From: an uncultured Clostridia bacterium
GTDB lineage: Bacteria > Bacillota > Clostridia > TANB77 > CAG-508
NCBI GenBank assembly: GCA_947594845.1
Contig: CANQEI010000003.1
Location: 41,010 to 105,009 of the forward strand
Length of the DNA stretch: 64,000 nucleotides
Direction: 5' to 3'
A model generated the notes under the pieces. That model saw only the letters and a list, made by a program, of their open reading frames with translations. It ran no database searches and was not told the origin of the DNA. Of the stretch, positions 26,153 through 35,088 are shown one piece after another (the stretch's first letter is position 1; the number at the start of each line of letters is the position of its first letter). A program made the position numbers and the translations under genes.

Positions 26153-26421
26153 TGGAAGAATATTGTAACAATCATACAAGAGGCGAATTATTAGATGAAA
26201 TTCGTGCTACAAATTTTAGCTTAATAGAACTTGGATTATATTTAGATATTAATCCAAATGACAAAAGAGCACTTTGTTTATGTAATGAATGTGCTAAGAA
26301 ATTAAAAATGTTAACAGATAATTATCAAAAAATTTATGGTCCACTTACTATAGAGTTCCCATGCAATAAATGGCGTTGGCTTGAGGAACCATGGCCTTGG
26401 GAAAAAGGAGGTAGTTTTTAA
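26152..26421 (+). CDS. cotJB: Spore coat protein CotJB
   Basis: LLDEIRATNFSLIELGLYLDINPNDKRAL...PWPWE. Position between cotJA and cotJC, with overlapping stop/start. Confidence 0.8.
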   Translation: MEEYCNNHTRGELLDEIRATNFSLIELGLYLDINPNDKRALCLCNECAKKLKMLTDNYQKIYGPLTIEFPCNKWRWLEEPWPWEKGGSF

Positions 26422-26822
26422 TGTGGTTATATCAAAAAAAATTAGAATATCCTGTTAGAATAAAATGTACCAATCCTCGATTAGCTAAATTTATAATATC
26501 ACAATATGGTGGTCCAGATGGTGAATTAGCTGCATCATTAAGATATCTTTCACAAAGATTTGGCATGCCAGATCAAAAGTCTAAAGCAATTCTAAATGAT
26601 ATTGGTACTGAGGAGTTAGCCCACTTAGAAATGGTTGGAAGCATTGTTCATCAATTAACTGATGGTGTTCCTGTAGAAGAATTAGAAAAGGCTGGTTTAG
26701 GAGCATATTATACTGATCATGGAGTTGATGTCTATCCTTCTTCTGCAGCTGGAGTTCCTTTCACAGCCGCATATATGGCTGTGAACTTTAGGATAAAAAA
26801 AAGCAATGTCAATTATCTTTAA
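26421..26822 (+). CDS. cotJC: cotJC 5' segment (Mn-catalase-family spore coat protein). Codons 1-118 are genuine and the last ~15 codons are read-through into the inserted element.
   Basis: MWLYQKKLEYPVRIKCTNPRLAKFIISQYGGPDGELAASLRYLSQRF...IGTEELAHLEMVG...AAGVPFTAAY then diverges (MAVNFRIKKSNVNYL*). Confidence 0.85.
   Translation: MWLYQKKLEYPVRIKCTNPRLAKFIISQYGGPDGELAASLRYLSQRFGMPDQKSKAILNDIGTEELAHLEMVGSIVHQLTDGVPVEELEKAGLGAYYTDHGVDVYPSSAAGVPFTAAYMAVNFRIKKSNVNYL
26757..26792. other. Left junction (attL-like) of the cotJC intervening element
   Basis: CCTTTCACAGCC GCATATAT GGCTGTGAACTTTAGG. It shares TTCACAGCC..ATATAT with the right junction. Confidence 0.7.
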
Positions 26823-26843
26823 TTAACATTGCTCTTCTGTCTC
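26795..26843 (-). terminator. Terminator of the cargo operon, just inside the element's left end
   Basis: Minus strand reads AGCAATGT-16 nt-ACATTGCT followed by TTTTTTTT. Confidence 0.65.
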
Positions 26844-26855
26844 AATATGAAAATT

Positions 26856-28334
26856 TTATTCTTCTGTGCTAGATTCAATTAAAGCATCTATCATATTTAC
26901 TATATCTGCTTCATTTATAGTTTCACCAGCTTTTAAATCTTCTTCATCTTCTCCAGAAAATTTAGCCGTTTCTACTATTGGCAATAATTCTTTTAATGTT
27001 TCTCTATCAAAATCATTGTCTTCATTCATTACTTCTATTAACATACAATAGTTTGAATCTAATTTTGTATATACAATTAATTCGTTTGTTCCACCTACAC
27101 TTAATTCAATAGTAATAAATTCTACACCATCTATTGTTTCTGCTTTAACATCTGAAACTTTTCCACCAACATTTTTAAAAGTTTCTTCTAATTCACTCTT
27201 TAGGGATGTTATATTTTTTTTCAAATCTTCATATCTTACTGGTTGTATCATCAAATTAGCCAACCATGTTGAATCTTCATCCTGTAGCTGTATTGTATTA
27301 TTAGTATCATCTATTTTATACTCTAAATTATCTGGTATGTATAGTGTAAATCCTGAAAACTTAACTTCTTGTGAAGATGATGATGGCGTATTTGTTGAAT
27401 TTCCAGTATTGTTATCTTTGCCTTCATCTTCTTCATCTTTATTTTCATTTGATGTAGATGATATTTTTTTATCTTCTTTTGATTCTTTTTCTCCACTATT
27501 ATCTATGAAAGCTGAAAAAATAATTAAGCTTATTACAGCTACAATTATAACAATCAATACGATTATAACACATACCTTTACTACACCATTATTATTTTTT
27601 TTAGGCTGATTGTTATTATTTACACTCTGTTGAGTCTTTTGTTGATTTGCTTGTACATTGTTACTGTTAGATTGTGAATAATTATTTTGTTGTGCATAAT
27701 TACTACTAGGTTGTGAATAATTACTTTGTGATGCATAATTGCTACCAGACTGTGAATAGTTACTTTGTGGCGCATAATTATTAGATTGTGTGTTATTACT
27801 TTGTGGTGCATAATTATTAGATTGTGTATTATTACTTTGTGGTGCATAATTATTGTTTGATTGTGCATAGTTTCCGCTATATTGCATATTATTACTTGGC
27901 TGCGCATATTCATTATTAGATTGTATATTATTGTTTGGTTGTGTATAGCCATTATTAGATTGCGTATTATTGTTTGACTGTGCATAGCCATTATCATATT
28001 GTGTATTATTGTTTGACTGTGCATAGCCATTATCATATTGTGTATTATTGTTTGGCTGTGCATATCCATTATTAGATTGTGTATTATTATTTGGCTGTGC
28101 ATAGTTATTATTAGATTCTATATTACTATTTGGTGGTGCAAACCTACTGTTAGATTGCCCATAATTACTTGTTCCATCATTTCCTTGATTGGAAGTAGAT
28201 GTATTACCATAATTATAAGAACCTCCATTTTGAGAATTTAAATCATTAGTAGTTGATTTTTGCACTAATGTACCACACTTAGGACAAAATATATCATTTT
28301 CTGTTAATGGTTCTCCACATTTACTACAATTCAT
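26856..28334 (-). CDS. Cargo protein D: N-terminal zinc-ribbon, long N/Q/S/Y-rich repeat region, one TM helix, C-terminal extracytoplasmic domain
   Basis: MNCSKCGEPLTENDIFCPKCG (CxxC-n11-CxxC). About 165 aa of YAQ(P/S)NNNTQSNNG-type repeats. TM VVKVCVIIVLIVIIVAVISLIIFSAFI. Start set at ATG 28334 (GAAAGGAG RBS). Confidence 0.7.
   Translation of the reverse strand: MNCSKCGEPLTENDIFCPKCGTLVQKSTTNDLNSQNGGSYNYGNTSTSNQGNDGTSNYGQSNSRFAPPNSNIESNNNYAQPNNNTQSNNGYAQPNNNTQYDNGYAQSNNNTQYDNGYAQSNNNTQSNNGYTQPNNNIQSNNEYAQPSNNMQYSGNYAQSNNNYAPQSNNTQSNNYAPQSNNTQSNNYAPQSNYSQSGSNYASQSNYSQPSSNYAQQNNYSQSNSNNVQANQQKTQQSVNNNNQPKKNNNGVVKVCVIIVLIVIIVAVISLIIFSAFIDNSGEKESKEDKKISSTSNENKDEEDEGKDNNTGNSTNTPSSSSQEVKFSGFTLYIPDNLEYKIDDTNNTIQLQDEDSTWLANLMIQPVRYEDLKKNITSLKSELEETFKNVGGKVSDVKAETIDGVEFITIELSVGGTNELIVYTKLDSNYCMLIEVMNEDNDFDRETLKELLPIVETAKFSGEDEEDLKAGETINEADIVNMIDALIESSTEE
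27610..28110 (-). repeat. In-frame degenerate tandem repeats (about 36-39 nt units) encoding the N/Q/Y-rich low-complexity region
   Basis: Reiterated ...AATAATAATACACAATCTAATAATGGATATGCACAGCC...-like units visible in the DNA. Protein repeats NNNTQ(S/Y)(N/D)NGYAQ(P/S). Confidence 0.8.
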
Positions 28335-33189: not shown

Positions 33190-34808
33190 TATTTTATATT
33201 ATGTTGCTTTATATTTAAGATTATCAAAAGAAGATGGAGATAAAGAAGAAAGTGAAAGTATCAAAAACCAAGAAAATTTGGGCATAGATTTTATTGAACA
33301 GCTAAAAAAGAAAGAACCTCAAAATACTTTTAAGCTTTTTAAAATATACATAGACGATGGTTTTACTGGAACTAATTTTAATAGACCTGGTTTTAAAAAT
33401 ATGATTAATGATATAGAAAATAAAAACATAAACCTTGTTATTACCAAAAACCTTGACAGACTAGGTCGTAATATTGCGGAAGTATGTCATTACTATGAAG
33501 ATTATTTTCCAAATAATAATGTAAGATATATGACTATATTAGATGGAATTGATACATTTAATCCTTTAGATGATGACATTCATTTAAAATTTAAAATGGT
33601 GACAGATGAATATTATCCCAAAAGACTTTCAAAAAATATTAAAGCAACAAAATTAAGAAATACAAAGCACGGATATTTTATAGGAAGTATTGCTCCTTAT
33701 GGATATAAAAAATCTTCATCAGATAATTATAAATTAGTCATTGATGAAGAAGTAGCTCCAGTTATTAGAAAAATATTCAACATGTATTCAAATCATTTTA
33801 CAAGATTTGAAATAGTTAAAGAACTGAACAAGTTAAAAATTCTTCCTCCTAGAAAACATTTGGATATGGAAAAAACAGAAAAAGGATTGTATAAAGTCAA
33901 TAAGAACGATTACTCTTGGAAAGAAAGTACAATTTCTAGAATAATTAGTAATCCAGTTTATATACGGATCAATAGTTGGATGTAAAACCTTTAAACCAAA
34001 TATAAAATTTAAAAATCGAAAAACTAATAAACTAGAAAATCAAATTATTGTACCCAATATGCATGCACCAATAATTGATATATCACTATTTAACACTTGT
34101 CAGCAAATTAGAAAAAAATATATACACAAATCTTGCAAGTATGACGATATTTTTAAAGGTCTGATATTTTGTGGTAATTGTGGTAAAACTTCAACTTTAA
34201 AACATAAAACAAAAATAAATAAAAATAATTCTATTTCACAAATAGATTATTATCTATGTTCAGAAGCTAATAAAGGAACTAAAAAGAAATGTGATAATAC
34301 CAAATCAATTAGTGCAAAAAAATTATATGAACTAATTTGCCCCATTTTAATAAAAGAATGTAGGAATATTTTTATAAATAAAAACGATATAAGTATTTTA
34401 ATTAATAATATAAATAACAAAATATCTTATAATACTACAATATTAAAAAAAGAATATAATCAAATTAATGCAAGAATCGCAAAACTTAATAACCAAATTA
34501 AGCAAATTTATGAAGACAAACTTGAAAGGAAAATTACAGATGAGTTATTTACAGAAATACAAAATAAAAAGCAAGAAGAATTACTAAAATGCCAACGTCA
34601 GCTAAAAGATATTGAAAAAAATATTGAACAAGAAACTAAAAGGAATACAATTTCTTATGATCAAGTCCAACAGATTGTTCAAAAATTTTTAAATACAAAC
34701 ACTATTAGCAAAGAACTATTACATACGTTAGTAAATAGAATTGAATTTGACAATAAAAAAAATTTAAAAATTTATTTTTCTTTTTCTGATATGTTAAAAA
34801 GAAATTAA
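33182..34808 (+). CDS. Large serine recombinase (SpoIVCA/TndX-like), with a +1 frame break at ~33965
   Basis: YLRLSKEDGDKEESESIKNQ (catalytic Ser), YIDDGFTGTNFNRPGF, ITKNLDRLGRN, recombinase domain GYFIGSIAPYGY. After NPVYI the sequence ATA [C] GGA TCA continues in the +1 frame as GSIVGCKTFKP...NMHAPIIDISLF, then a zinc-ribbon CGNCGK...C and a coiled-coil. Confidence 0.85.
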
Positions 34809-34832
34809 AAAGTTCTTTTATTATTTTATTCT

Positions 34833-34868
34833 CCTAATTTTCACAGCCAAATATATTGCATGTAAAGG
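34833..34868. other. Right junction (attR-like) of the intervening element
   Basis: CCTAATTTTCACAGCC AAATATAT TGCATGTAAAGG. Confidence 0.7.
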
Positions 34869-35088
34869 CGACCCTGTTGCAAACTTGCAAGAAGACTTAG
34901 CAGCAGAGCAAAAAGCTAGAGCAACTTATGAAAAATTAATTAATTTATGTGCTGATGACCCTGACGTAATAGATCCTTTAAGATTTTTAAGAGAACGTGA
35001 AGTCGTTCACTTTCAAAGATTTGGTGAAGCACTAAATGGCGTTCAGGAAAAATTAGCTGAAAAGAAATTCTATATGAATAATAATTAA
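34855..35088 (+). CDS. cotJC: cotJC 3' segment (77 codons, no start codon of its own)
   Basis: IACKGDPVANLQEDLAAEQKARATYEKLINLCADDPDVIDPLRFLREREVVHFQRFGEAL matches the CotJC C-terminus (B. subtilis ...KGDPIADLYEDIAAEQKARATY...FLREREIVH...). In frame with TTCACAGCC at 34840. Confidence 0.85.
   Translation: MACKGDPVANLQEDLAAEQKARATYEKLINLCADDPDVIDPLRFLREREVVHFQRFGEALNGVQEKLAEKKFYMNNN

Follow-up and report, generated by a model that had tools for sequence, protein, structure and literature searches.

In a 64,000-nucleotide stretch of DNA from an uncultured Clostridia bacterium (GenBank assembly GCA_947594845.1, contig CANQEI010000003.1, positions 41,010 to 105,009; hereafter the window), the coat gene cotJC of the cotJ operon is split by an intervening element of 8,080 bp, which ends with the gene of a large serine recombinase (LSR). 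The explanation that we prefer, with a probability of roughly 0.6, is that this element belongs to a cotJC-specific family of LSR-driven gene-intervening elements and was immobilised recently. On this view, an LSR-driven integrative element entered cotJC exactly at the boundary of codons 118 and 119. Members of the family would be excised in the mother cell by the recombinase together with a directionality factor, which would rebuild cotJC. In the window strain, a one-base insertion in the NPVYIG motif of the recombinase would have immobilised the element, leaving a cotJC gene that is undecayed and yet one which the element's own enzyme could no longer rebuild. Programmed DNA rearrangement has a textbook case in the gene-intervening elements of sporulation genes, whose characterised examples are nearly all from a few Clostridium species and from cultured Bacillus. 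In Bacillus subtilis, cotJ is a σE-dependent mother-cell operon.

Precise insertion into cotJC

The operon runs normally through cotJA and cotJB and into cotJC as far as codon 118 (...AAGVPFTAAY), after which the frame passes through 15 unrelated codons of element DNA to a stop at position 26822. This course had been proposed in an earlier interpretation made from the letters of the DNA (the sequence-only reading), and both the coordinates and the Pfam matches agree with it. The missing C-terminal part, which begins IACKGDPVANLQEDLAAEQKARATYEKL and continues ...FGEAL..., was found where that reading had placed it, beyond an insertion of 8,080 bp, in the same orientation, in a compatible frame and without a start codon of its own. 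The hexamer ATATAT stands at both junctions (26771-26776 and 34851-34856) and is preceded each time by the 10-mer TTTCACAGCC. In silico excision, by which positions 26421-26776 were joined to 34857-35088, restored a full-length cotJC open reading frame (ORF) of 588 nt encoding 195 aa. The joined protein matched the Pfam Mn_catalase profile at 1.5e-55, with residues 1-184 on profile positions 1-197, and was colinear with intact orthologues, and it can be assigned to the Mn catalase/CotJC family. Its score of 99 bits against the NCBIfam model for true Mn catalases is below the cut-off of 350, as expected for the short CotJC subgroup.

The joined protein was used to scan one genome per GTDB species, which gave 555 CotJC-encoding stretches, and the best 80 of these were inspected. 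cotJC was uninterrupted in 80 of the 80. The best relative, L001 (a gut metagenome-assembled genome (MAG) named 'uncultured Clostridia bacterium', with CotJC protein P0121), is 97% identical to the joined CotJC end to end over residues 1-195 and is syntenic on both flanks, window positions 16003-26779 corresponding to L001 412-10359 and window positions 34839-35090 to L001 10339-10590. Across the join the DNA of L001 reads GCATATATTGCATGTAAAGG, identical to the predicted attB, and dozens more relatives carry either the same sequence or a wobble variant of it. Since the syntenic L001 has an uninterrupted cotJC with the predicted attB, it is confirmed that the split is a precise insertion and not a pair of genes. 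The points of sequence made by the sequence-only reading were all borne out, save that the recombinase gene is not intact.

The element-side arms of the two junctions can be put together to rebuild attP, CCTAATTTTCACAGCCAAAT|ATATGGCTGTGAACTTTAGG, which is a near-perfect 20+20 inverted repeat. It is symmetric at 17 of 20 positions (20 of 24 when extended), with its dyad centre T|A inside the shared ATATAT, and a symmetry of 17 is reached by 1 of the 63,960 40-mers of the window. The host attB, CCTTTCACAGCCGCA-TA-TATTGCATGTAAAGG, is quasi-palindromic and weakly symmetric (CCTTTCACAGC / GCATGTAAAGG), because the codons for PFTA and for ACKG are near reverse complements. The sites are therefore of the LSR type, being short, with an imperfect dyad and a shared central dinucleotide as the presumed position of crossover. 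Serine integrases exchange strands at a central dinucleotide that attP and attB have in common and that sets the polarity of the reaction. In the window element strand exchange would take place at the central TA, and the orientation of insertion would not be fixed, because every dinucleotide of ATATAT is palindromic. The boundaries of the element in Table 1 are arbitrary inside this core. Excision is predicted to leave the cotJC junction ...CACAGCCGCATATATTGCATGTAAAGG... (attB junction GGAGTTCCTTTCACAGCCGCATATATTGCATGTAAAGGCGACC) and a circle with the junction ...CACAGCCAAATATATGGCTGTGAAC... (attP junction CTCCTAATTTTCACAGCCAAATATATGGCTGTGAACTTTAGGATAA). A pattern scan of metagenome_contigs for att sites gave 0 matches; the degenerate pattern covered the left arm of attL and attB only, and the collection evidently lacks the strain.

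Table 1. Features of the split cotJ operon and of the intervening element (window coordinates).
Feature	Position	Strand	Remarks
cotJA	25814-26152	+	Pfam CotJA, 1.6e-11
cotJB	26152-26421	+	Pfam CotJB, 2.7e-23; intact in the window; its 3' end, CCATGGCCTTGGGA, is an LSR insertion site in relatives
cotJC, N-terminal fragment	26421-26776	+	codons 1-118; tblastn with the joined product, 98% identity (residues 1-121)
attL	26753-26792		host B arm, central TA in ATATAT core (26771-26776), element P' arm ATATGGCTGTGAACTTTAGG
Intervening element, 8,080 bp	26777-34856	none	segment missing from syntenic L001; 25% G+C (window, 26.8%)
Cargo gene 1, 504 aa	26856-28370	-	Pfam Zn_Ribbon_1 (N-terminal); N/Q-rich 13-aa repeats, transmembrane segment, C-terminal domain
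Cargo gene 2, 534 aa	28357-29961	-	N-terminal transmembrane segment; no family match
Cargo gene 3, 574 aa	29958-31682	-	secreted trypsin-like peptidase; Pfam Trypsin_2
Cargo gene 4, 403 aa	31687-32898	-	zinc ribbon, transmembrane segment, domain with HExxH (VAHELGHY, read from the translation)
Conserved micro-ORF, 42 aa	33061-33189	+	overlaps the recombinase start (ATGA)
LSR gene, disrupted	33182-34808	+	one extra base at 33964/33965; ORFs 33182-33985 and 34059-34808
attR	34833-34872		element P arm CCTAATTTTCACAGCCAAAT, central TA in ATATAT core (34851-34856), host B' arm
cotJC, C-terminal fragment	34857-35088	+	codons 119-195
Terminator-like hairpin closing the cotJ operon	35106-35135	+	follows the C-terminal fragment

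The frameshift in the recombinase gene

A large serine recombinase gene had been placed next to the right junction by the sequence-only reading. Its position was borne out, since the stop codon lies 48 bp before the attR core, as expected of skin-like elements, but the gene is not intact: it is frameshifted in every available copy of the strain. The first ORF (267 aa) matches Pfam Resolvase (1.7e-17, residues 8-164) and Recombinase (2.3e-11), and the second (249 aa), in another frame, matches Zn_ribbon_recom (4.6e-11). The catalytic serine expected of a resolvase is present, with Y11, R13, L14 and S15 invariant against 12 relatives (YLRLSKEDGD). When C33965 (or A33964) was deleted, a protein of 541 aa was obtained that is colinear end to end with relatives of 541-548 aa, shares 59% identity with the best of them and about 50% with some 90 further clusters, and matches the phrog_95 integrase at 2.1e-90. 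All domains of an LSR are thus encoded, although across two frames and not as one polypeptide of ~450-600 aa. It is the invariant NPVYIG motif (N257, P, V259, Y260, I, G262) that the extra base interrupts. The gene is either an LSR pseudogene or dependent on frameshifting, and because the lesion falls within an invariant motif, excision by the element's own enzyme is doubtful in the window strain.

The same pair of 267-aa and 249-aa ORFs occurs in six other contigs (from ERZ27249239, ERZ27249248, ERZ27249453 and ERR10663694-6), five of which are 100% identical to the window. The sixth, L179, was tried as a second strain (99% BLAST identity) in the hope of a test for selection on the frameshifted recombinase, and was set aside, since it is short of a single 39-bp cargo repeat unit and differs in nothing else. 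The other long genes of the window, e.g. thrS, hisS, relA, recJ, clpB, rny and spoIIP, are intact, so that a high rate of indel errors is not the explanation. The recombinase frameshift is real. Neither the exact restored recombinase nor the exact joined CotJC was found among about 15 billion public proteins, in which the split forms are present; the underlying assemblies show the majority form only.

Related elements in the cotJ operon and the fate of the window copy

Recombinases 49-59% identical to that of the window were found at the same cotJC codon in L081, L171, L082-084, L085/086, L172 and L173-176. The loci of the five recombinases described next break cotJC at residues 115-121 of the query. 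In L081 (P0001, 59% identity) the recombinase stands directly upstream of the cotJC C-fragment, as in the window, with a cargo of Phage_CRI, a resolvase and a methylase, and L171 (P0003, 55%) has the same layout. A second layout is seen in L082-084 (P0062, about 50%; 5,749 bp) and L085/086 (P0040, about 50%; 3,942 bp), where cotJA-cotJB-cotJC-N abuts a convergent recombinase and the cotJC C-fragment is at the far end; in both, the halves join in frame. P0051 (L173-176) is carried on 19 contigs from several samples, all of them occupied, in the orientation of the window and with a minimal cargo of one DUF2207_C gene. Across these elements the attP arms are conserved, the cargo varies, both orientations occur, and the recombinase genes are intact in the other hosts. 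The attP of L173 is the reverse complement of that of L085, save for a change of the central TA to TG, and the two elements are opposite in orientation relative to cotJC, which fits the argument made above on the polarity of a palindromic dinucleotide. By these likenesses the window element belongs to a family of cotJC-specific LSR elements from gut Clostridia that are uncultured and low in G+C. The recombinases of this family and its att sites are candidates for new orthogonal serine-integrase parts, for which the presumed palindromic crossover dinucleotide would be unusual.

Recombinase-alignment scans of metagenome_contigs and viral_contigs returned LSRs of 27-40% identity only, from which the association of the close family with cotJC is not countable; the closest LSRs of viral contigs were 27-35% identical, and none adjoined cotJ. 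An apparent tblastn match to cotJC residues 61-118 that overlapped the 3' end of the recombinase (L173/L087) proved to be a spurious extension through a stop codon. By BLASTP no relation was detectable between the host DUF2207 gene of the window (50630-52648) and the DUF2207_C cargo of the minimal elements.

Each of the related recombinases that were examined has, directly upstream of it, an ORF of 37-54 aa homologous to the 42-aa micro-ORF of the window, with the shared motif ..I.(F/Y)G..DLK..IL....C.., and gene callers have called the micro-ORF in public assemblies too. It has no match in Pfam, PHROG or PADLOC. From its position and conservation, the micro-ORF is a candidate recombination directionality factor or regulator, and the recombination unit would then be a compact pair, micro-ORF followed by LSR. 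A 'CATAA' lies 37-48 nt upstream of the micro-ORF in four lineages and resembles the −10 element of mother-cell promoters, which is weak evidence in DNA so rich in A+T. A σ70 promoter scan gave fewer matches than shuffled sequence, and Rfam had no match in window 25000-36000.

Two loci show other surroundings for such recombinases. In L087 (6234-11875) and L088, cotJC is decayed, and of its N-half only residues 97-118 are left, beside an element with RepL, Mob_Pre, a nucleotidyltransferase/HepT pair and a second LSR, which suggests that some family elements are mobilisable plasmid-like units. In L089 (2889-5188) and L090, a sister recombinase (37% identity) with the same upstream micro-ORF stands beside a 123-aa polysaccharide-deacetylase fragment near yabP/yqfD, and this element may intervene in another sporulation-type gene.

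Two further insertion sites came to light by chance in the recombinase-alignment scans. Site A is in the last codons of cotJB (CCATGG|CCTTGGGA, PWPW motif), 25 bp before the cotJC start, and is occupied in L143 (6860-10870), L134, L121 (960-5215) and L174/175 (L174 1-5943) by an LSR of ~532 aa that is 32-34% identical to that of the window and forms a separate lineage. It is empty in L173 (7800-7900), of the same species as L174, so that its occupation is polymorphic within a species. Site B is at about codon 65 of cotJC, where an LSR of ~522 aa, of a third lineage, is found in L172 (7835-12306) and L121 (5200-10546). Double occupancy was seen in L172 (site B and codon 118, termed site C, with cotJC in three pieces), in L121 (A and B) and in L174/175 (A and C). 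The 90%-identity cluster of the window N-fragment contains many Mn_catalase fragments of 65-79 aa from dozens of contigs, consistent with frequent occupation of site B. Such insertions explain why many gut MAGs are annotated with cotJC in two or three short 'Mn_catalase' pieces, and they make this coat gene operon a recurrent site-specific target in uncultured gut Clostridia.

A bolder picture, which we put forward as tentative, is that the cotJ operon acts as a multi-lock developmental switch. The elements of three unrelated LSR lineages, at three fixed sites, would all have to be excised in the mother cell for CotJC to be made. The micro-ORF upstream of the codon-118 recombinases would stand for a new family of directionality factors of very small size, insertion or flipping in either orientation would be allowed by the palindromic TA, and +1 frameshifting at the CGG codon, which is nearly unassigned, might still yield a little of the window recombinase.

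To obtain a measure of selection, substitution rates were computed by the method of Nei and Gojobori. For cotJC of the window and L001, the synonymous rate (dS) is 1.16 and the non-synonymous rate (dN) 0.019, giving a dN/dS of 0.017, equal in both halves; from dN, the neutral share of this divergence would be at most about 2%. A gene so free of decay is either still selected, and hence still rebuilt, or has lost its function very recently. For L082 and L085, both of which are split, cotJC has a dS of 0.78, a dN of 0.084 and a dN/dS of 0.107, and the recombinase a dS of 0.40, a dN of 0.041 and a dN/dS of 0.10 (dN divided by dS). The dS of the recombinases is below that of the host cotJC, which speaks for horizontal spread of the elements and against a long coexistence by vertical descent.

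Several of these observations weigh against a recently immobilised member of a developmental family. First, there is no direct evidence of excision for any family member, and no attB or attP junction was found (the metagenome scan for attL and attB patterns being the only one made). Secondly, the contigs with the frameshift are all of one strain and apparently of one study, and do not show the frameshift to be old or widespread. Thirdly, cotJC is without any decay; a stuck element would then require a very recent frameshift, or else something still rebuilds the gene. In addition, sporulation-specific promoters are not established, the shared 'CATAA' being weak, and the L082 and L085 recombinases are less diverged than the cotJC of their hosts.

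The last point would be expected of an ordinary integrative element without a developmental role, for which cotJC would be a conserved quasi-palindromic landing site whose knockout is tolerated (for example with a CotJC/YjqC-type paralogue, or with the gene dispensable in the gut). We regard this as unlikely. It agrees with the apparent horizontal mobility of the recombinases, with the polymorphism within one species at site A (occupied in L174/175, empty in L173), with the presence of some copies in a decayed cotJC (L087/088, where most of the N-half is deleted and the cargo, with RepL and Mob_Pre, is plasmid-like) and with the persistence in several samples of the window strain, whose copy has lost its recombinase. 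Single mutants of cotJC-type catalases in C. difficile, moreover, have little coat defect (PMC11222575). On the other hand, cotJC is strongly conserved across these taxa, split copies included (dN/dS 0.02-0.13), and the split copies are carried stably, as with the 19 occupied contigs of P0051. Three independent LSR lineages have converged on one operon, two elements being present at once in L121, L172 and L174, and every element examined is in exact register, with a restorable reading frame. This pattern matches the known mother-cell gene-intervening elements (PMC4191935, PMC5595907).

That the window element is itself fully working, with cotJC rebuilt by excision in the mother cell, would need either a +1 frameshift at AUA-C-GGA or a serine recombinase acting in trans, and seems rather improbable. 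Both cotJC halves are preserved, with the low dN/dS against the intact orthologue given above and neither stop nor frameshift, and both recombinase ORFs are otherwise open, with no more lesions. The extra base makes a rare CGG codon (window 33962-33970), found 4 times among 18,416 codons of the long window ORFs, where the +1 codon GGA is found 523 times, and a +1 shift there restores the conserved NPVYI-GSIVG exactly. This is a classical 'hungry-codon' setting for +1 frameshifting, as in shifts of the Ty3 and prfB types; the context may be coincidental. Against such a shift, re-pairing of a P-site AUA is impossible in the +1 frame, no sign of a stimulatory element is seen, and a frameshift at this position is found in 0 of more than 90 related recombinase clusters, so that it is not a conserved regulatory feature. 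There is also no second LSR within the 64-kb window to act in trans, and no rebuilt CotJC of the strain in public protein collections.

An artefact of assembly or binning, as the origin of the split gene, of the frameshift or of both, can be regarded as effectively refuted: although the source is a MAG, and the exact proteins map to an NCBI contig of 113,925 bp and to metagenome assemblies, attL, the whole element, attR and the frameshift recur at 100% identity in three ENA and three Logan run assemblies made by different assemblers, L178 runs across attR into 5.7 kb of flanking host DNA and L177 from cotJB and attL into the cargo, and attL and attR are ordered at the junctions as in a site-specific insertion. 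Contigs L179-L183 end 70-112 bp past the attR core, which does not fit a branch point at k-mer distance. If the window element is indeed a recently immobilised member of its family, intervening elements can become trapped when their recombinase decays, and the window strain and its relatives would form a natural before-and-after pair for asking what the end of excision of a 'developmental' element costs its host.

The sequence-only reading had likened the element to skin and had considered cotJC an unusual, uncharacterised target. The second claim does not hold, as cotJC is already known as a target of intervening elements. A skin-like element is listed in cotJC of Laceyella sacchari FBKL4.010, with fragments of 231 and 351 nt lying ~8.1 kb apart (Galperin et al. 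2022, Table S3, bioRxiv 10.1101/2022.02.25.481979), and cotJC, gerE, yaaH and yhbH count as frequent integration loci according to Kohm et al., who cite Abe et al. 2013 (bioRxiv 10.1101/2021.11.22.469490). The Laceyella element resembles that of the window in splitting cotJC by about 8 kb, but its host belongs to the Bacilli (Thermoactinomycetaceae) and not to uncultured gut Clostridia, and its fragment lengths suggest a break at about codon 77 instead of 118. These earlier reports are in silico listings without analysis of att sites, recombinase family or activity, and no experimental study of a cotJC element was found in the literature searched.

Of the comparison with skin (sigK, SpoIVCA; B. 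subtilis and Clostridioides difficile), the precise insertion of an LSR element in a mother-cell-type sporulation gene, recurrent in relatives and such that excision would rebuild the ORF, stands, while a functional recombinase of its own does not. The architecture and the family context support skin-like working for the family; the window copy lacks that one defining feature. It differs from skin also in that the target is a coat gene and not a sigma factor, so that excision would not gate the whole late programme, and in that the recombinase has no detectable close similarity to SpoIVCA, matching generic Pfam domains and phrog_95 only. As a point of likeness, excision in C. difficile skin is controlled by a small directionality factor (PMC5025042), for which the micro-ORF is the candidate here. 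The window recombinase, unlike that of skin, is frameshifted, and excision is a prediction. The element gin, which interrupts gerE in Bacillus cereus ATCC 10987 (Abe et al. 2017, PMC5595907), is likewise not a prophage, is driven by serine recombinases, lies in a small mother-cell gene and has no phage genes. However, gin has three recombinase genes, and its excision in sporulation was shown experimentally (PMC5595907), whereas the window element has one broken recombinase, the conserved micro-ORF and a four-gene envelope/protease cargo.

SPbeta, which is integrated in spsM by SprA in an LSR-mediated attP x attB reaction, needs for excision the small directionality factor SprB expressed in the mother cell, and defective derivatives reduced to the recombination unit exist (PMC4191935, PMC5499854). 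It is an active phage of 134 kb, whereas the window element has no phage genes; the att core of SprA is 16 bp, against the 6 bp (ATATAT) here with a presumed palindromic TA crossover, and the present family occurs in both orientations. The yin element in yabG of Clostridium botulinum (PMC10747680) is also a clostridial intervening element, described recently, in a mother-cell coat-maturation gene, and is prophage-like, with another target gene. In overall layout the cotJC family is built like the gene-intervening elements of sporulation (skin, vfbin, vrin, gin and SPbeta).

Cargo and neighbouring genes

As had been stated in the sequence-only reading, the cargo is not phage-like. Apart from the zinc-ribbon N-termini and the integrase, nothing in the element matched PHROG, so that it does not qualify as a prophage, and PADLOC found no defence system, only one weak low-complexity match. 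The protease of cargo gene 3 has more than 100 full-length homologues of 54-65% identity and is common in related Clostridia. In L264 (8794-13793) there is a cluster of four genes (zinc-ribbon, Trypsin_2 protease, unassigned, zinc-ribbon) that matches the cargo by Pfam labels and gene order; its protease, the only member compared by sequence, is 63% identical to cargo gene 3. This cluster is chromosomal, with capsule genes (Wzz, CpsB) on one side and MoxR/DUF58/VWA genes on the other, and neither an LSR nor cotJ is nearby. Because the matching arrangement stands in a chromosomal context in L264, the cargo is regarded as a host-type cell-envelope module. That other gene-intervening elements also lack a conserved cargo apart from the recombinase has been noted (Galperin et al., bioRxiv 10.1101/2022.02.25.481979).

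The L264 cluster raises the question whether a second copy of the module is present in the genome of the window or whether the module was relocated into the element. No similarity of the cargo proteins to any other ORF of the window was detected by BLASTP. The N-terminal zinc-ribbon architecture of cargo genes 1 and 4 recurs in a chromosomal protein of 416 aa (window 40959-42209). Tandem repeats of 39 bp occupy 27661-28156 within cargo gene 1, and the unit missing from L179 reflects either repeat-length polymorphism or assembly collapse.

Among the sporulation genes that the host carries are cotJABC and spoIIP. The SpoIIP homologue (15870-16952, Pfam 1e-66) lies 9 kb upstream of cotJ, and engulfment-stage genes are thus retained by the host. 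Directly downstream of cotJC (35090-38823) are a family-2 glycosyltransferase gene (35157-36698) and the gene of a Wzy_C/O-antigen-ligase-like membrane protein (36682-38796). This pair is not in the syntenic L001 and represents a second, unrelated indel beside the cotJ operon.

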